A stretch of 64,000 nt of DNA, taken from Candidatus Hinthialibacter antarcticus (GTDB lineage: Bacteria > Hinthialibacterota > Hinthialibacteria > Hinthialibacterales > Hinthialibacteraceae). This document shows positions 1,544-61,268 of the stretch, piece after piece. The DNA is taken from contig JAVCCE010000074.1 of the NCBI GenBank assembly GCA_030765645.1, positions 41,551 to 105,550 on the forward strand, written 5' to 3'. How positions within the stretch are numbered: the first letter of the stretch is position 1; every line of letters begins with the position of its first letter. The position numbers and the translations under genes are program-made. The notes beneath the pieces were generated by a model that had not been told where the DNA came from, made no database searches, and saw nothing but the letters and a program-made list of their open reading frames with translations.

Positions 1544-3889
1544 TTAATACGAAATGAAACTGGGAGCGCCCGGCTCAATGCTTTGCGGGCGGCCCTTTGG
1601 CCCCATCAGCTGAATGCCGATCTGGATGCCGAAGTCATCGCCAAGCGTCGGATGGTTCTCATGCTCCAACTCAATCGTACCGAAGAAGTCATACATATTG
1701 CGCATCAGCCCGATGGTATTGCGGCGGAAGCGCTCTTCATCGAGGTCGAATCGCATTTCATAAAACAGCGCCCATTTGTTGGAGACGTCCCAATTGAGGC
1801 GCACCGAAGCGTCTTGTTGCTCATTCAAATTCAAAAACGGATAGCGGAAGGTGTAGTAGCCAATCGACAACCGTGCACGATCCATGATGTTGAACTGCGA
1901 GAAATAATATTGCGACCGCATTTCTTCGTCGTCGATGTCATAGCGCAGGTTGCCGCCCAGCGTCCACCAGGCAAACGGCATGATGGCAAAGTCATGCAGC
2001 AGGTCAGAAAACCGCTGGTCGTTTTCTTCGGCGATGTCTTCATAGAATAAAAAATTGTCGAAGCGCAGGTTCTCATCGGGGAACACTTCATACGCAAACC
2101 CCACCGATGCGCGTAAGAAATCAGACGTCGCGCCATTGGCGTCTTTGCCCTGGACGCGGGCGCGCAACATCGTTCTCACGCTGTGCATCTCGGCGCGAAA
2201 ATCATCAAGCGGGTCTACATACGGAAAACGCCCGCCCGCCGGGGTGGTTAGTTCTTCCAGGTCGGTATCCGGCAGGTAGTAGCCATATTCAATCGCGGGT
2301 TCAAACAAGACGCGCATTTTTTGATAGCGGTCTAAGAACGGGTCAAATTCCATCGTGCGCCGCGTCGAGAGGTTCATGCCGGTCTGCGCCATCAAGCGCG
2401 ACTCGGAGCCAAAATCAAACCGCTGCAGCGACCCGGTCAGCGGATCGTTTGACAACCGGTGCGCGTCCTCATACATCGTTGCGCGGTAGCCGATCCACGG
2501 CTCCAGCGTGAAGCGTTCGGGCAGGTAGAAGGGATACGTTACTTTGCCGTCGGCGTCATAGCGGGTGAATTTATCGACGAACTCGGTCTGTTGATAGAGC
2601 GTGTATTTATCCAGCGGGAAGGTGATTCCCTGTTCGCGGTTGTAGCGGCCATAGTCAAGCGACATGCTGCCGTACAGCCCGGTGTTGAACAAGTTGGTTG
2701 GATATTGTTCAGCGTGGACTTGGGGCTTGCGTTCAATATACGGCAGCCCGTTTGAATAAAACTCATCCAATCGCAGGGCGCCGGTGATGCGCACGCTCTG
2801 GTCGTCGAAGCGCTTGGTCAGGTTGATGTTTGAGGTCAGGTCGCGTTCCGACTCGCGAACGTCCATCTGGCGCACCCGCTCAGGCGAGCGGTAATCGTCG
2901 CGATATTCAGAGTCGGAAAACTTGTGCCCCTTCACGGTAAGGCGCATGTCGTACGGCAGTTCCTGGGCGTATTCCACCGCCATGTGATAGCGGTCGTCGC
3001 CGTCAAAAATGCGGTCGTTGTCAGGAGCTTCTTGTTTGATGTGGTAGCCGTAGACCTGGCCTTCGGGGCCGTATTCACCGTCAATATCCCATTGGAATTT
3101 CGCGCCCTTACCAATGCCCGCCTCGGTGTGGTAGTCGCCGTAGAGGTCGATCATATATTCGTCGCTGGGGACAATGTTGACTTTGTTGAACGCCACAAAG
3201 CCCAAGCGCGAATAGTGCGCCGCCCAGATGTAATAAGCCACCTTGTTTTCACGCAGCGATTGCGAATAAAACGGCAGGTAGGCCATCGGCATAAACTGGG
3301 TGTAAAACACCATGTCATACAGCCAGTAGCGGGTATTGGGTACGACCACCAGACGGTCAAACTTAAAGTAGTAATAAGGATGGGGCAGATCGTTTCCGGT
3401 CACGCTGCCGTTGAACAGGGTATATTCGCGGATGGTCTCTTTGCCGTCGACGGTTTCGAGCGACCCCGCCTGACGCGGTTTGTATTCAAGCCGCTCGCCT
3501 TTGAAATAAAAACCTTCGTTCAGTTCGGCGTCGAGCACCGTCCACAAGGTGCCAGTATCGTTTCTCAGATCGGCCCACATGCGGTCGCCGCGTAGAATGC
3601 GTCCGTTTTCCCACAATTTCACATCGCCGGTGGCGCTGAGAATTTCGTCAGTGGACTGATATTCGATCACATCGGCGGTGATGGCGGTCTTGCCTTTGGA
3701 GAGCGTCGCTTGTTTGCCTGCGCTGCCCGTAATGATGAGCGAATCGCTGTTGACGACGTACTCGACCTCGCCCTTGATGATTTCAACTGGCGCGTCGGCG
3801 GCGGTCGAGAGAAAATCCTGTGCGGCGGCTGGCAGCGACAACGCAGCCAGACATATAAATAACGTAGAGAACCGAATAGACAAAATCAC
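1544..3889 (-). CDS. lptD: LPS-assembly outer-membrane protein LptD (OstA family).
   Basis: 781 aa. Signal peptide 'LAALSLPAAAQD'. The N-terminal OstA-like region reads 'ITADVIEYQSTDEILSATGDVKLWENGRILRGDRMWADL'. The C-terminus is large, aromatic-rich and beta-barrel-like. Confidence 0.7.
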   Translation of the reverse strand: MILSIRFSTLFICLAALSLPAAAQDFLSTAADAPVEIIKGEVEYVVNSDSLIITGSAGKQATLSKGKTAITADVIEYQSTDEILSATGDVKLWENGRILRGDRMWADLRNDTGTLWTVLDAELNEGFYFKGERLEYKPRQAGSLETVDGKETIREYTLFNGSVTGNDLPHPYYYFKFDRLVVVPNTRYWLYDMVFYTQFMPMAYLPFYSQSLRENKVAYYIWAAHYSRLGFVAFNKVNIVPSDEYMIDLYGDYHTEAGIGKGAKFQWDIDGEYGPEGQVYGYHIKQEAPDNDRIFDGDDRYHMAVEYAQELPYDMRLTVKGHKFSDSEYRDDYRSPERVRQMDVRESERDLTSNINLTKRFDDQSVRITGALRLDEFYSNGLPYIERKPQVHAEQYPTNLFNTGLYGSMSLDYGRYNREQGITFPLDKYTLYQQTEFVDKFTRYDADGKVTYPFYLPERFTLEPWIGYRATMYEDAHRLSNDPLTGSLQRFDFGSESRLMAQTGMNLSTRRTMEFDPFLDRYQKMRVLFEPAIEYGYYLPDTDLEELTTPAGGRFPYVDPLDDFRAEMHSVRTMLRARVQGKDANGATSDFLRASVGFAYEVFPDENLRFDNFLFYEDIAEENDQRFSDLLHDFAIMPFAWWTLGGNLRYDIDDEEMRSQYYFSQFNIMDRARLSIGYYTFRYPFLNLNEQQDASVRLNWDVSNKWALFYEMRFDLDEERFRRNTIGLMRNMYDFFGTIELEHENHPTLGDDFGIQIGIQLMGPKGRPQSIEPGAPSFISY

Positions 3890-5324: not shown

Positions 5325-5487
5325 CCTAATATTCCTTTCAAATGAATACCCCCGCCGCAAGCAGCGGGGTATCAAATCAAGTATTTATAGTGCTTGTCAG
5401 AATACTATGCGGATTGATCTTTCATAACTGTATCCATCGCTGAGCCCTACGGGCGCGCTTCAGGTACATACTATTTGACAAACGCTT

Positions 5488-5676
5488 TTGAAGCCATCTC
5501 AAAAATACTTGACCTTCGCTGCGTTTGGCATGTGTACAACTTTGCTCGCTTCAGTGCGGGCTTTCAGGCCCTTTTGCACAGGCGCTCCCAGAGTTGCACC
5601 CATGCCTGAGACGACTTGTCAATTTTTGATCGGTCGGAATCCCATTTCGTTATCAGTATTTTTGAGATGGCTTCAA
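5488..5676. mobile_element. MITE-like nonautonomous element bounded by perfect 22-bp terminal inverted repeats (TTGAAGCCATCTCAAAAATACT).
   Basis: 5488-5509 is the exact reverse complement of 5655-5676. The interior carries the 80-nt repeat unit also found at 35344-35423 and 60944-61023. No clean target-site duplication was seen. Confidence 0.45.
5527..5606. repeat. 80-nt structured repeat unit, copy 1 of 3, with imperfect terminal inverted repeats GGCATGTGTACAAC / GTTGCACCCATGCC.
   Basis: Its reverse complement aligns at about 85% identity with 60944-61023, and at lower identity with 35344-35423. The ORF-track 'proteins' 5488-5715 and 60877-61209 share a peptide only because they translate this repeat. 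Confidence 0.6.
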
Positions 5677-6229: not shown

Positions 6230-6335
6230 AGCCTCGCTCTGACTGTTCGAGATATTGCACTGGCGGGTTAAGAACCCACCTTACGGTTATTGCACTGCTG
6301 CATGTTGCGAGTGTCGTTGCGAGCGAAGCGACGCA

Positions 6336-6356
6336 ACCTGCCTGCGGCAGGCAGGT
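6336..6356. repeat. Palindrome ACCTGCCTGCGGCAGGCAGGT, copy 1 of 3 (others at 35264-35288 and 60839-60857).
   Basis: Perfect hairpin. The same CCTGCCTGC-N-GCAGGCAGG core recurs twice elsewhere, each time embedded in repeat clusters. Confidence 0.6.
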
Positions 6357-6610: not shown

Positions 6611-9043
<2,433 letters not shown>

Positions 9044-9099: not shown

Positions 9100-10077
9100 T
9101 CAAGCCAATGTCGGCCCCGACAATTGCGCTTCATAAAACACGCCCATTTCACGAAAGCGCTGATAGCGGTGTTCCGCAACCGTTTCCGGGTCCATCGCCG
9201 CAAATTCTTCGAGACGCCGGGAGACCGCCTGCTCGACGTTTTCATAAGCCTCTTGGGGGTTCCGGTGGGCGCCGCCCATCGGTTCCGCAATGATTTCGTC
9301 GATCACGCCCAGGCGTTTTAGGTCATCGGCGACAATGCGCATCGTCCCTGATACTTGCGCCGCTTTGGTTCGGTCTTTGAGAATAATCGCCGCGCAGGCT
9401 TCGGGCGTACACACAGCGTAGTACGCGTTTTCCAACATCATCACGCAGTTGCCCACGCCAATCGCCAACGCCCCGCCGCTGCCTCCTTCGCCTAAAACGA
9501 CGCAAAGAACCGGTACGCGCAGCCCCGCCATCATTTCCAGGTTTTCCGCAATCGCCGAGTGTTGGCCGCGTTCTTCGGCGGCGATACCGGGATAGGCGCC
9601 GGGCGAGTCGATAAAGGTCACAATGGGCAAGCGAAAGCGGTCCGCCATTTCCATAATGCGGCGCGCTTTCTTGAAGCCTTCCGGGTGCGACATCCCAAAA
9701 TTGCGGCGAATATTTTCTTCGGTGTCGCGCCCTTTTTGATGACCAACCACCGCAACCGAACGCCCGCCGATAGAACCCAGCCCCGCGACAATCGCTTCAT
9801 CGTCGCGAAAGGCGCGGTCGCCGTGTAGTTCAACAAAATCGGTCACGAACGATTTGATATAATCCATGGTATAAGGGCGGTTCGGGTGGCGGGCTAATTG
9901 AACCCGCTGCCAGGGCGTCAACTGCGAGAAGATTTCATCAATCATCGTCGCCAATTTTTCGCGCAGCGGTTTAATTTCATGAGAGAGGTCCATATCGCGC
10001 GAAGACGCGTAGACTTCCATCTCTTCAATTTTGGTTTCGAGTTCCCGCAAGGGTTGTTCAAATTCTAAATAGCGCAT
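9100..10077 (-). CDS. accA: Acetyl-CoA carboxylase carboxyltransferase alpha subunit.
   Basis: 'MRYLEFEQPLRELETKIEEM' is the canonical AccA start. 'FIDSPGAYPGIAAEERGQ' is the carboxyltransferase motif. Start set at the internal Met, because the ORF-track start at 10131 adds 18 non-conserved residues. Confidence 0.9.
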   Translation of the reverse strand: MRYLEFEQPLRELETKIEEMEVYASSRDMDLSHEIKPLREKLATMIDEIFSQLTPWQRVQLARHPNRPYTMDYIKSFVTDFVELHGDRAFRDDEAIVAGLGSIGGRSVAVVGHQKGRDTEENIRRNFGMSHPEGFKKARRIMEMADRFRLPIVTFIDSPGAYPGIAAEERGQHSAIAENLEMMAGLRVPVLCVVLGEGGSGGALAIGVGNCVMMLENAYYAVCTPEACAAIILKDRTKAAQVSGTMRIVADDLKRLGVIDEIIAEPMGGAHRNPQEAYENVEQAVSRRLEEFAAMDPETVAEHRYQRFREMGVFYEAQLSGPTLA

Positions 10078-10203
10078 AATCCAATCCCAATGTTGTTCGT
10101 TAGAGCGTTTGACAAAACACCGTGCGATCAAATAGATCGTTTCAGTTTATCCTTAATAATAACGAACAACAATGCGGGTGTGGAACTGCGCGATGCCTCC
10201 CCC

Positions 10204-10382
10204 CTCAAAAAGCAATGTCATTGACTTAAGGGGTGGCAAGCCAAGGCGTCGCGAAGTGAGGGCAGACCTTGATGCAACGAAATCAAAAATATCAGCCCTG
10301 TAGGGGCGCAACGTGTTGCGCCCGAATCCCCCCTTATAAAAGAGGGGCTAAAAGTCTTAAGTCAATGACATTGCCTCAAAAA
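10204..10382. mobile_element. MITE: 163-bp element with perfect 19-bp TIRs (GCAATGTCATTGACTTAAG), flanked by an 8-bp direct target-site duplication CTCAAAAA.
   Basis: TIR-L 10212-10230 and TIR-R 10356-10374. TSD copies lie at 10204-10211 and 10375-10382. The interior holds a REP-like GGGTGGCAAGCCAAGGCGTCGCGAAG (10231-10256) and a GGGCGCAACgtgtTGCGCCC hairpin. It sits in the accA upstream intergenic region. Confidence 0.55.
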
Positions 10383-10449
10383 GGGCGACGCAACCAATAA
10401 GCGATTTTTAAAAATCGACTGTAATTGTGATGAGCGTTTTGAGAAATGT

Positions 10450-10872
10450 TTAAACCGAGCGGCGGCGGTTGCGGGGCGAGTCTTTATTGTTGCGGCCCTC
10501 TAAATAGGTCACCCGGTATTGTTGGCTTTTGGGTTTACGCTTTTCTTTAGGAGGCGGCGGCGGGGTCAGCGTCGTTCCACAATGTTTACAGGTAAACTGG
10601 TTTTCGAGCGGGCGAGAACACTCAGGACAGCGCGAGCGAAACAACACGCAGCGGATACGCCCGTCGCGAATCCACTCTTCAACACGCGAGAAGGGAATCG
10701 TTAGCGACTTTGAAAGCTCTTCGCCAGTCGCTTTCGGATGCAGCAGCAAAAAGTCGAGTGCGCGGTTCAGGTTTTCATATTCAGACTGGACGCAATCCAA
10801 GCAGCGCCCGCTTCCATCTACGGGCAGATATCGTTGGCAGTCCGTGCAATTACCGAATTTCATTTTCTTCAT
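10450..10872 (-). CDS. Zinc-ribbon protein with central wHTH-like segment (YvyF / TIGR03826 'flagellar operon protein'-like architecture).
   Basis: Two CxxC...CxxC pairs (C9/C12/C24/C27 and C83/C86/C96/C99) flank 'HPKATGEELSKSLTIPFSRVEEWIRDGRI'. Pro/Lys-rich tail. Function unknown. Confidence 0.45.
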   Translation of the reverse strand: MKKMKFGNCTDCQRYLPVDGSGRCLDCVQSEYENLNRALDFLLLHPKATGEELSKSLTIPFSRVEEWIRDGRIRCVLFRSRCPECSRPLENQFTCKHCGTTLTPPPPPKEKRKPKSQQYRVTYLEGRNNKDSPRNRRRSV

Positions 10873-14120: not shown

Positions 14121-14331
14121 GGATGCGCTGTTGCGAAAAAAAGTAACCATCTCAAAAACAATGATGACGAAAAGGGCTACGACGAATTAGAGCGTTTGAC
14201 AAAAGACTGTGCGTTAAGCGCGCCCGTAGATCTCAGCGATAGATACAGTTATGAAAACTCAATCCTCACTTCCATTCGGTTATCAGATTTGGTAGGGTGA
14301 ATGGATACTGATTCAAGCCAAAGGACCAATT

Positions 14332-16987: not shown

Positions 16988-17050
16988 GGTCGGGCGGCAA
17001 GCCAAGACGGCGCGAAGTTCGCCTCGGCGAACAGCCCTTGCCACCCGACC
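16988..17050. repeat. REP-type long hairpin GGTCGGGCGGCAAG...CTTGCCACCCGACC between convergent genes.
   Basis: 14-bp arms with one mismatch. The interior 'CCAAGaCGGCGCGAAG' matches REP motif 1 (GGCAAGCCAAGGCGTCGCGAAG) seen at 10231, 18301 and 19226. It likely also acts as a terminator. Confidence 0.6.
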
Positions 17051-18290: not shown

Positions 18291-18388
18291 CTGAACCTAG
18301 TGGCGAACCAAGGCGGCGCGCAACGGCGATAACTCTTGAGATAGGGTGGCAAGGGCAAGAACGAGCAGAGCGAGTTCAGCCCTTGAGG
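18291..18388. repeat. REP array immediately 3' of the RAYT gene.
   Basis: Contains motif 1 (TGGCGAACCAAGGCGGCGCGCAACGG) and motif 2 (GGGTGGCAAGGGCAAGAACGAGCAGAGCGAGTTCAGCCCTTGAGG). 18322-18386 is identical to 19250-19314. Confidence 0.7.
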
Positions 18389-19012: not shown

Positions 19013-19220
19013 AACATCCCTGAAAAAGAAAAACCCACCGAAGTAAGCGTGCAAAGCAGAGGCCCGGCGGGTGTACTAACTATAATATTACAAACATACA
19101 CGCAAATGTCCACGGTTATTACCATACACTTTAGGAAAACATATTTAAAACGTGCGAATTAAACACAGTGTAAACAAATATCAAGTATTTGAATAGCATA
19201 AAAATGCCAAAGAATAAGAT

Positions 19221-19316
19221 GAGCCGGGTGGCGAGCCAAGGCGTCGCGAAGCGGCGATAACTCTTGAGATAGGGTGGCAAGGGCAAGAACGAGCAGAGCG
19301 AGTTCAGCCCTTGAGG
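19221..19316. repeat. REP array (motif 1 plus motif 2), a near-duplicate of 18301-18388.
   Basis: GAGCCGGGTGGCGAGCCAAGGCGTCGCGAAGCGGCGATAACTCTTGAGATAGGGTGGCAAGGGCAAGAACGAGCAGAGCGAGTTCAGCCCTTGAGG. Confidence 0.7.
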
Positions 19317-22697: not shown

Positions 22698-23129
22698 ATG
22701 CAGACAGTCCATCCGCGGTTGAGGAACGCAGTGGTTCCAGTTCAATTCTTCGTCGCAACAAAACTTACAGAAAGCGCAGTCGCCATTTGGTCGGTTGACC
22801 CAAGCGGTCAGGTACAGCCCGCCTTGCTGGCGATTAACTATGAAAGCGATGAATCGCTTTCCTCTCCTGACGACGTGATCTTCTCGGATTGGGACAATGA
22901 AGATGACGACTATGACTACGACGATGGTTTAGATGACGACCTCGATGACGATGACGACGATGATCTGGACGACGACGACGACGACGATGATGACGATGAT
23001 GATGATGATGACTTAGATGACGACCTCGATGATGATGACGACGACGAAGAGGACGAAGATGAAGAGGACGGCTTCGATGACGACATTGACGATATCGAGA
23101 TTGGCGCCGATGACGAAGATGAATTTTAG
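22698..23129 (+). CDS. Extremely acidic Asp-rich (poly-D) low-complexity protein, 143 aa.
   Basis: GAGGAG SD with a 7-nt spacer before the ATG at 22698. The C-terminal 95 aa is about 70% Asp/Glu ('DDDLDDDDDDDLDDDDDDDDDDDDDDD'). GAT/GAC codons alternate. A strong terminator follows directly. Confidence 0.5.
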   Translation: MQTVHPRLRNAVVPVQFFVATKLTESAVAIWSVDPSGQVQPALLAINYESDESLSSPDDVIFSDWDNEDDDYDYDDGLDDDLDDDDDDDLDDDDDDDDDDDDDDDLDDDLDDDDDDEEDEDEEDGFDDDIDDIEIGADDEDEF

Positions 23130-29400: not shown

Positions 29401-29462
29401 TCACATCTCCAATCGTTCAAGGTTCTGTAGCGATTGTTAAACGATGTTCGGTCAGCGCGCCC

Positions 29463-29520
29463 GAAGGGCTTCGCGATAGATCAATTGACGAAAACTCAAT
29501 CCGAACACAAATCTGACAAC
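29463..29520. repeat. 58-bp dispersed repeat, copy 1 of 2 (the other at 60865-60920, about 80% identity).
   Basis: GCGATAGATcaattgacgAAAACTCAATCCGaACACaaaTCTGaCAACCACTATAAAA read against GCGATAGATaccgttacggAAACTCAATCCGcACAgtatTCTGgCAACCACTATAAAA. Confidence 0.55.
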
Positions 29521-29553
29521 CACTATAAAAAAGAACCCGACCGACGCGAGAGG

Positions 29554-35252: not shown

Positions 35253-35316
35253 CTTCAAGGGCTGAACCTGCCTGCGGCAAGCAGGTTCGCTACGCTCATT
35301 CTTGCCCTTACCACCC
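35253..35316. repeat. REP (motif-2 ends, reverse orientation) with the CCTGCCTGCGGCAAGCAGG palindrome inserted in its loop.
   Basis: CTTCAAGGGCTGAACctgcctgcggcaagcaggttcgctacgctcATTCTTGCCCTTACCACCC. Its ends match 18976-19012 and the reverse complement of 18345-18388. Confidence 0.6.
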
Positions 35317-35343
35317 CGCCATTGATACGAGTTTACAGTCCTG

Positions 35344-35423
35344 GCGTGGGGGCGCCTCTGTGAGCGCCTGTGCAGAAGGGCATGAAAACCCGCACCGAAG
35401 CGAAAAGAGACGTACCCACGCCA
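35344..35423. repeat. 80-nt structured repeat unit, copy 2 of 3 (terminal IR GGCGTGGG / CCCACGCC).
   Basis: The core 'GGGGCGCCTCTGTGAGCGCCTGTGCAGAAGGGCATGAAAACCCGCACCGAAGCGA' aligns with 60957-61005 and the reverse complement of 5545-5593. Confidence 0.55.
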
Positions 35424-58974: not shown

Positions 58975-59330
58975 TTTCAAGTAGGGTGGCGTTGAGCGCA
59001 GCGAAACCCACCAATAGAAGCGTATCGAAAAAGCGCATCGAAAACCAAAGGTGGGATTCATTGCATTCATCCCACCCTACGGGGGCTGCTTAGATTGATC
59101 CCCCCAGGTGATTATGAAACCAATCCCGTCGCGGTGAATGCCCCCCTTGAAAAAAGGGGGGTGGCGCTGAAAGCGCCGGGGGGATTCGGGCGCAACACGT
59201 TTTCTTTTCATGCGGCTCACCAGGAGGTTCGCCCTCCCCAGATCATTCAATATATTGGTGGGTTATTATCTACCGCTAATGATGATTGAAACATTGCATG
59301 GTGGGCTGTTCGCGCGAGCCCACCCTACCA
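58975..59330. repeat. Cluster of GGTGGG...CCCACCCTAC hairpins downstream of pyrG (58975-59005, 59071-59102, 59299-59330).
   Basis: GGTGGGATtcattgcattcATCCCACCCTAC and GGTGGGCTgttcgcgcgAGCCCACCCTACC are paralogous hairpins. The first, 'GGGTGGCgttgagcgcaGCGAA', resembles REP motif 1. Confidence 0.45.
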
Positions 59331-60741: not shown

Positions 60742-60838
60742 TTTCAACGCCTACTTACCAGTGACGAAACGCAACCAGCGGGCTATTGTATGCGACTAGA
60801 ACGTTTGTCAAAAATATGTGCATAAAGCGCGCCCGCAG

Positions 60839-61023
60839 CCTGCCTGCTGCAGGCAGGGGCTCAGCGATAGATACCGTTACGGAAACTCAATCCGCACAGT
60901 ATTCTGGCAACCACTATAAAATAACCATCTCGAAACCAATTTCGGCATGAGTGCAACTGTGGGAGCGCCTGTGTAACAGGGCCTGGAAGCCCGCACCGAA
61001 GCGAGCAGATTTGTACACATGCC
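60839..61023. repeat. Composite repeat cluster: palindrome CCTGCCTGCTGCAGGCAGG (60839-60857), the 58-bp repeat (60865-60920) and the 80-nt unit copy 3 (60944-61023, inverted relative to copy 1).
   Basis: Each sub-element has paralogs elsewhere in the window, at 6336/35264, 29463, and 5527/35344. Confidence 0.55.
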
Positions 61024-61268
61024 TTTCGCAGCGAATGAGCAAGTAGCATTTAGCATTGAGATGGCGTCTTGGGTTCGCGTAATACAGTCTGCCTGCGCAT
61101 TCAGTCGCAGGGGATTGGGTGGAGCAGCTTTCGGAGTCAGCGGCAATAAGCCGCGACGGAGACAAGCGGAATCCAACCCCGAGATTGAATGCGTCGCACA
61201 AGAACGCACGATTCTATAAAATTACTTTTTTACGGCATTTTCTGAAGGAGCGGGGAGTTATGCCAGAC

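Follow-up and report, generated by a model that had tools for sequence, protein, structure and literature searches.

The accA locus and its insertion

The window, by which we mean the whole 64-kb stretch of DNA analysed here, carries on its minus strand accA and, upstream of it, a Cys-rich ORF encoding a putative zinc-ribbon protein. The 372-nt spacer between these two genes holds a 161-bp segment (10213-10373) with no gene inside; the accA ATG follows 136 nt downstream of this segment, the stop codon of the putative zinc-ribbon gene precedes it by 77 nt, and inverted and direct repeats bound it on both sides (Table 1).

Table 1. Features of the accA locus, and a related fragment elsewhere in the window (TIR, terminal inverted repeat; TSD, target-site duplication)
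Feature	Position	Strand	Basis
accA, carboxyltransferase alpha of acetyl-CoA carboxylase, 325 aa	9100..10077	-	PF03255 (ACCA) and PF01039; start codon backed by the L122 alignment
Left TSD copy CCTCAAAAAG	10203..10212	.	exact 10-nt direct repeat; length set by clade pairs, L126 and ISPa1635
Left TIR CAATGTCATTGACTTAAG, 18 bp	10213..10230	+	identical to the ends of autonomous L064 and L087; fits the IS4-subgroup consensus
REP-like module GGGTGGCAAGCCAAGGCGTCGCGAAG..., adjoining the left TIR	10231..10275	+	related TIR-less copies; also beside the left TIR in L126
Perfect 9-bp-stem hairpin GGGCGCAAC-GT-GTTGCGCCC	10304..10323	.	inverted-repeat finder; stem kept in the centroid fold; present in L128
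Subterminal C6/G4 hairpin CCCCCCTTATAAAAGAGGGG, 8 nt inward of the right TIR	10328..10347	.	kept in all four lineage copies
Right TIR, exact reverse complement of the left TIR	10356..10373	-	sequence reading and mismatch search
Right TSD copy CCTCAAAAAG	10374..10383	.	exact direct repeat
Putative zinc-ribbon ORF, 140 aa, Cys-rich (four CxxC)	10450..10872	-	zinc-ribbon Pfam matches, sub-threshold only
Decayed TIR-less fragment of the MITE lineage	59140..59201	+	L128-like variant with the extra GGCGCTGAAAGCGCC hairpin

Read directly, the 19-mer GCAATGTCATTGACTTAAG at 10212-10230 returns as its exact reverse complement at 10356-10374, and the octamer CTCAAAAA adjoins the outer ends of both (10204-10211 and 10375-10382), a pattern that the initial annotation took for 19-bp TIRs with an 8-bp TSD. 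The repeats and their coordinates stand, but the lengths do not. A repeat finder extends the flanking direct repeat to an exact 10 of 10 nt, CCTCAAAAAG, which takes in the outermost G/C earlier assigned to the TIR and thus leaves a TIR of 18 bp rather than 19; comparison with other copies fixes the element boundaries at CAATG...CATTG, that is, 18-bp TIRs with a 10-bp TSD. The two window TIRs are identical at 18 of 18 positions. With up to three mismatches allowed, the 19-mer matches the 64-kb window at these two sites only, without a second intact copy of the element; its chance expectation there is 0.03, and two or more matches arose in none of 100 shuffles. The paired repeat architecture at 10204-10382 is far beyond chance.

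The ORFs that cross the element are spurious only (up to 52 aa), in agreement with the earlier description of a unit lacking coding capacity, and the interior hairpin that had been described with it is indeed a perfect 9-bp stem (Table 1). Since an independently assembled ENA metagenome contig is 100% identical to the window over 3335 bp, element included, the insertion is not an assembly artefact; exact-protein look-ups with the zinc-ribbon protein and AccA likewise returned a sole match, a 3.3-kb ENA contig identical to the window. No IS4-like transposase gene emerged when the 64-kb window was searched by tblastn with two clade transposases (best E = 1.3), and blastn of the whole element against a plasmid collection gave no match.

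A terminus shared with transposase-encoding elements

An exact scan of a species-representative genome collection places the 19-mer terminus in at least 120 contigs. Among the matches listed there are about 46 assemblies (counted by accession prefix) and about eight phyla (judged from record titles): Bacteroidota (Saprospiraceae, Chitinophagales, Lewinellaceae), Desulfobacterota, Planctomycetota (Anammoxibacter), Lentisphaerota (Victivallales), Nitrospinota, Gammaproteobacteria, Patescibacteria and Fibrobacterota (Chitinispirillaceae). Many of the matches fall less than 100 nt from a contig end, a clustering that is the signature of a multicopy insertion sequence (IS).

At L064 (4-1481), identical perfect 18-bp ends bracket an IS of ~1476 bp (1.47-1.48 kb) with one ORF of 457 aa, which matches NCBIfam NF033592 "IS4 family transposase" at 149 bits (cut-off 115) as well as Pfam DDE_Tnp_1 (PF01609), and in which YGKRWPIEDSYKTFK constitutes the Y-2-R-3-E-6-K motif. 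L087 holds an 88%-identical copy of this element with the same perfect ends, and in L056, a Patescibacteria MAG, the same ends surround a transposase that is only 35% identical to that of L064. The terminus also bounds about 50 short elements in other genomes, nearly always with 10-bp duplications. The initial annotation had seen in the insertion a cut-and-paste DDE MITE, a reading that is supported by ends common to it and transposase-encoding ISs and by short copies elsewhere with TSDs of their own; its guess at IS5-, IS1595- or Tn3-like relatives fails, as the TSD is 10 bp instead of 8 and the partner transposase belongs to the IS4 family.

Affiliation with the IS4 family

The parent of the window MITE is an IS4-family element (IS4 subgroup / ISPa1635-like clade). 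For the IS4 subgroup, Table 1 of De Palmenaer et al. (2008; PMC2266710) gives ends of the form -AATR--------WTW----, direct repeats of 10-13 bp and a length of 1400-1650 bp. CAATGTCATTGACTTAAG conforms to this end consensus, with AATG at positions 2-5 and TTA at 14-16, and the 10-bp direct repeat of the window falls in the range for the subgroup; the YREK motif is found on the autonomous partner L064, not on the window DNA.

Named relatives emerged when the L064 transposase was compared by tblastn with the plasmid collection, which yielded IS4-family elements 28-32% identical to the query, including an "IS4-like element ISPa1635 family transposase". ISPa1635, found on Pseudomonas plasmids and chromosomes, is the closest named relative: its ends open with CAATGTCAT, as does the window TIR, and continue, like those of its relatives, as ...AAC(T/C)T(T/A)(G/A)G. 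The ISPa1635 ends CAATGTCATCAACTTTGG / CAATGTCATCAACCTAAG match the window TIR at 14-15 of 18 positions, and those of an IS on a Desulfosarcina sp. BuS5 plasmid, CAATATCATTAACTTAAG / CAATGTCATTAACTTTAG, at 16 of 18; the ends of a Skermanella plasmid IS are CAATGTTATCAAGTTAGA / CAATGTCATCAAGTTAGC. The ISPa1635-type DDE transposase shares its NCBIfam and PGAP family with the autonomous partners of the MITE, yet such transposases are only 28-32% identical to that of L064, which carries the exact window TIR. Moreover, ISPa1635 and its relatives are autonomous and 1.48-1.64 kb long, whereas the window MITE is geneless and has an unrelated interior. Exact 10-bp TSDs flank ISPa1635 in four of four independent insertions (GATTCCACCT, GATCAGCCGC, GCGGTCCAGT and AGGGAATTTC); this measurement conflicts with the 8-bp direct repeat given for ISPa1635 in PMC6713103.

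More distant is the type element of the subgroup, E. coli IS4 (insG), whose ends TAATGCCGATCAGTTAAGG / TAATGCCAGTCAGTTAAGC match the window terminus at 12 of 19 positions and have the architecture N-AATG...(A/C)(G/T)TTAAGG. It too encodes a YREK-type DDE transposase, and a target preference is documented within its subgroup; InsG is, however, only 20% identical to the L064 transposase (E 4e-14), and the E. coli element has a 12-bp TSD at its K-12 copy and TSDs of 11-13 bp, against 10 bp for the window MITE. A functional parallel is offered by the MIC231 cassettes of IS231 (IS4 family, Bacillus cereus group), which, like the window MITE, are non-autonomous units with IS4-family ends that depend on a cognate transposase in trans, their mobilisation in trans being well established. 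The likeness also rests on references B2 and B3 of PMC2266710. MIC231 and IS231 belong to another subgroup, with ends CAT-------AA--TAA and TSDs of 10-12 bp, and MICs often hold passenger genes, whereas the window element is 161 bp of hairpin modules. Those GC-rich hairpin modules, which are also dispersed without TIRs in the window, resemble REP/BIME units, but REPs, thought to be moved by RAYT (Y1) transposases, lack a TIR/TSD architecture, while IS4 ends and a 10-bp TSD delimit the mobile unit in the window.

Length of the duplication and target preference

The TSD length was measured on every left/right terminus pair in the fetched loci, with the element set as CAATG...CATTG and the exact flanking repeat recorded. 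Exact repeats flank 18 pairs, 17 of them with exactly 10 bp and the remaining one with 11 bp. The decisive cases are L066 (CCATCCGGGT), L102 (AGGTGCAGGG), L032 (GGGGTAAGGG), L030 (GGTCAATAGG), L091 (AGTTTACAAG), L042 (ATGTGTTAGA) and L055 (ATCTACGGGG), where the outer bases are not complementary G/C and yet are directly repeated, which excludes a 19-bp TIR combined with an 8-bp TSD. For the window element itself, that combination was dropped on the combined strength of the clade pairs, of a sister copy in L126 described below and of the ISPa1635 insertions.

Over 157 distinct flanks, the 10-bp target has the palindromic consensus CCC-T-N-N-A-GGG, whose last position is biased by the search pattern while the others are not. 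CCCNNNNGGG makes up 67 of these flanks, and the palindromic CCCTNNAGGG is the preferred target of the clade. The window target CCTCAAAAAG, set in a C-run/G-run context (ccccCCTCAAAAAGgg), is a poor match to this preference, a point that counts against the explanation that we favour below.

In some copies of MITEs of the same TIR clade in other genomes (L052, L068, L113, L085), the 14 nt outside the TIRs are mutually reverse-complementary and not direct repeats, for example CCTACCCCAAAGGG ... CCCTTTGGGGTAGG in L068, where the palindrome runs past the IS ends. A simple insertion with a 10-bp TSD does not explain extended palindromes of this type.

Interior modules and sister copies

The interior of the MITE has no similarity to the IS body. 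The claim that it contains a REP is fair if worded as REP-like: the MITE lineage consistently carries this module beside its left TIR, and the module also occurs free of TIRs in the window, where 10231-10256 has three relatives (16992, 18298 and 19226(-19310); 73-96% identity), all TIR-less. It is a dispersed, GC-rich imperfect palindrome found independently of the MITE. The C-run/G-run hairpin inside the right TIR, for its part, is also present in MITEs of unrelated Desulfobacterota MAGs (L015, L102).

In the metagenome collection, the left TIR-interior junction GACTTAAGGGGTGGCAAGCC had 0 matches, and a scan for AAAAGT together with the TIR returned three contigs (L126, L127 and L128), all from the JGI metagenome Ga0222672. 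L126 holds at 2937-3110 a complete 174-bp copy with perfect TIRs, 92% identical to the window MITE in both end regions and laid out in the same way, with the REP-like module at the left TIR and a C6/G6 hairpin plus AAAAGT at the right TIR; its TSD is 10 bp, GCTTCAGTGC. This copy splits an ~80-nt hairpin repeat that is intact at 5529-5606 of the window. When the element and one TSD copy are removed from L126, the remaining sequence is colinear with the uninterrupted 5529-5606 and with the copy in L127, so that the restored repeat amounts to the equivalent of an empty site for L126. L128 has the same MITE, with the GGGCGCAAC hairpin and the unique sequence at its centre preserved; it carries an extra 24-nt hairpin and reaches the contig end.

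The decayed fragment in the window (Table 1) belongs to the same lineage. Its plus strand reads as the minus strand of the 10213-10373 copy, it is identical to 10310-10333 at 24 of 24 positions and 92% identical to L128 over 51 nt, and half of the GGGCGCAAC hairpin is retained at 59178-59201.

The L127 copy of the MITE (1806-2012) has a recognisable right end only. In place of a 10-bp TSD it has a 45-nt direct repeat, CCCTCTAACTCCCCCCGAACTTAGGGGGGAGAACCTGTGAAACTT, on its flanks, which a one-ended event or a local duplication could have produced.

The locus in syntenic relatives

A database of 5.8 billion proteins contains only two homologues of the zinc-ribbon protein, 85% and 76% identical to it, and they lead to the contigs L122 and L124. 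L122 (GCA_964556895.1) has the gene order of the window (HAD hydrolase and EamA, zinc-ribbon, accA, lon) at ~83% nucleotide identity. Its spacer between the zinc-ribbon gene and accA measures 124 nt as against 372 nt in the window, contains no trace of the MITE and has diverged, with only CGCATTGTTGTTCG in common. L124, a 1-kb contig, shares with the window a palindrome upstream of the insertion point and then diverges. The comparison with related accA upstream regions that the initial annotation had proposed therefore gives a divided answer: the element is absent from L122, but a clean single CCTCAAAAAG site was not found in the L122 and L124 spacers, which are too diverged to provide a base-precise empty site at accA.

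Some further features of the locus may be recorded here. Directly upstream of the accA start codon, 10088-10102 and 10160-10174 form a 15-bp stem (93% complementary, 57-nt loop), the minus-strand 5′ arm of which, CGCATTGTTGTTCG, is the sole spacer segment conserved in L122. The Lon protease (6611-9043, minus strand) has a Lys/Ala/Pro-rich N-terminal extension of ~50 aa, which is unusual for Lon. As to gene content, the window is rich in Gfo/Idh/MocA oxidoreductases, and L122 encodes DUF1080 and FG-GAP proteins, a combination that gives no more than a hint of a PVC-type bacterium.

Other repeats of the window

Short dispersed palindromes are unusually plentiful in this genome, and one of them, CTGCCTGCGGCAGGCAG, is also found in the relative's contig L124. 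A GC-rich repeat of ~80-92 nt is present in three copies in 64 kb (5515-5606, minus strand; 35343-35423 and 60944-61035, plus strand), and at 75-89% identity in the related metagenome, in L126 (~2905-3175, interrupted) and in L127 (2312-2408). Its consensus, GGCRTGxGTGC...CCGCACYGAAGCGA...CAYGCC, forms a long hairpin of 28 pairs, two of them with compensatory changes, and has no match in Rfam at a threshold as lax as E<=1; it may represent a further mobile palindrome or a small RNA not described before. One copy is bracketed by a perfect 22-nt inverted repeat (TTGAAGCCATCTCAAAAATACT / AGTATTTTTGAGATGGCTTCAA), and the resulting 189-bp unit (5488-5676) looks like a second MITE-like element. A related pair, CCATCTCGAAA / TTGAGATGG, flanks the copy at ~60925-61052, and CCATCTCAAAAA recurs at 14147. 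The presence of CCATCTCAAAA at the ends of the inverted repeat at 5488/5676, and again at 14147, prompted the idea that the octamer CTCAAAAA is the end of another repeat family. This idea was dropped: the octamer is only mildly enriched in the window (nine observed, 3.8 expected) and the longer motif is not enriched.

An intergenic repeat of ~130 nt, TTAGAGCGTTTGACAAAA...GCGATAGATAC...GAAAACTCAATCC...CACTATAAAA, has four or five copies (5384-5475, minus strand; 14187-14268; 29445-29530; 60796-60921), and its first 27 nt (TTAGAGCGTTTGACAAAACACCGTGCG) are found at 10100-10126, 23-49 nt upstream of the accA ATG. As it includes a TTGACA hexamer, it may be a shared promoter/operator or another repeat family. 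Several further REP-like hairpin families, at 6335-6356, 35265-35286 and 60837-60858; 59050-59080 and 59299-59328; and 18292-18388 / 19220-19316, comprise AACCTGCCTGCGGCAGGCAGGT, GGTGGG...CCCACCCTAC and a repeated unit of 97 nt (93% identity). Finally, a long run of GAC/GAT codons at 22893-23108 yields an Asp-rich, acidic low-complexity tract within a coding region.

Origin of the element

The segment at 10213-10373 is a real but ordinary mobile-element insertion, an IS4-family MITE upstream of accA. In its full form, we consider it very probable that this is a 161-bp, geneless, non-autonomous MITE of the IS4 subgroup / ISPa1635-like clade. Its 18-bp ends, CAATGTCATTGACTTAAG, would have been kept as recognition sites for an IS4-type DDE transposase that acts as a dimer and that a full-length copy provides in trans. 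If this transposase works like the Tn5/Tn10-type enzymes of the IS4 family, it would have cut the MITE out and, with a cut staggered by 10 bp at CCTCAAAAAG, placed it in the spacer that separates the zinc-ribbon gene from accA; these 10 bp would have been duplicated when the staggered cut was repaired. The interior consists of lineage-specific hairpin and REP-like modules rather than of coding sequence derived from an IS. Family membership suggests the cut-and-paste chemistry, and the perfect TIRs and the perfect TSD point both to a recent insertion and to a source of transposase in this genome, present or past.

Could the 161-bp unit never have transposed as such? A full-length IS4-family element might have inserted at accA and had its interior deleted or replaced afterwards, an origin that TIRs and a TSD alone do not separate from transposition of a MITE and that agrees with the lack of another intact copy in the window. 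Yet short elements built of the same modules (the left REP-like unit, the C6/G6 hairpin and the right AAAAGT) stand at unrelated loci, in L126 with its own 10-bp TSD and in L128 in a different flank; these copies show that the short form itself moves as a unit and thus argue against a deletion remnant at accA, as does the lack of similarity between the interior and the IS body. We therefore regard an origin by deletion in situ as very unlikely. A still more radical proposal would deny transposition altogether and see a native REP/BIME-like palindrome or a structured RNA whose arms resemble an IS end by coincidence. The window is full of hairpin repeats, and the interior modules are common to TIR-less repeats at 16992, 18298, 19226 and 59140-59201, as this proposal would have it; against it, transposase-encoding ISs from many phyla end in the very sequence of the 18-bp arms, the flanking duplication is exact and, at 10 bp, as long as the TSDs of the clade, and no Rfam family matches. 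The distribution of the terminus, the L064 ends and the clade TSDs effectively refute it, and the probability that we leave to it is close to nil. Transposition of a short IS4-type MITE thus remains our preferred account.

Possible effect on accA

The initial annotation placed the element in the accA leader and suggested that it could alter accA expression; both the label and the effect are assumptions, and the effect, while conceivable, is improbable. A consensus scan called no terminator-like or promoter site inside the MITE, and near accA it found one promoter-like site only, at 10184-10156 (9 of 12 matches), which falls between the MITE and the gene. In an Rfam search of the whole window at gathering scores, only a tRNA passed; a relaxed Rfam search of 10050-10480 brought up SprD at 26 bits, against a gathering score of 100, and this was taken as chance.

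An exapted insertion that now contributes to accA expression could act in several ways: through an 18-bp-stem hairpin in a read-through or leader RNA, as a barrier between the genes, or through the inward TTGACT of each TIR, a 5/6 match to the -35 hexamer. The position of the MITE 136 nt from the accA ATG, with an orientation like that of both flanking genes, would suit such a role, and as RNA the spacer in its entirety has a very stable fold (-142 kcal/mol, z = -8.1). These fold statistics are, however, a trivial outcome of the TIRs; the only promoter-like site is downstream of the MITE, which therefore does not part it from accA, and no terminator-like site was called within the element. The syntenic relative L122, moreover, manages without the MITE, and other copies stand in unrelated contexts. 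On balance, we think it unlikely that the insertion has been exapted. We give similarly little credence to a broader scenario in which the element is a chimera of IS4-type ends and host REP-like modules that gave rise to the TIR-less repeats or serves to spread them, and in which the accA copy has been co-opted for transcript structure or regulation. Most likely, the MITE has no present-day role and is a neutral intergenic passenger.

Implications

The main value of these observations lies in annotation. The MITE marks a recent transposition event in the neighbourhood of accA, a key gene of fatty-acid synthesis, with a small chance that it affects that gene, and general understanding of how such elements work is unchanged. 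For IS curators, the clade of the window MITE duplicates 10 bp, not 8, and favours the palindromic CCCTNNAGGG target, while its terminus CAATGTCATTGACTTAAG is conserved letter for letter over about eight phyla among the matches listed, even where the transposases are only ~35% identical. For the organism, the MITE implies that an IS4-type transposase is, or was until recently, active in this uncultured lineage, and the lineage of short elements to which it belongs accounts for part of the repeat load of the genome.
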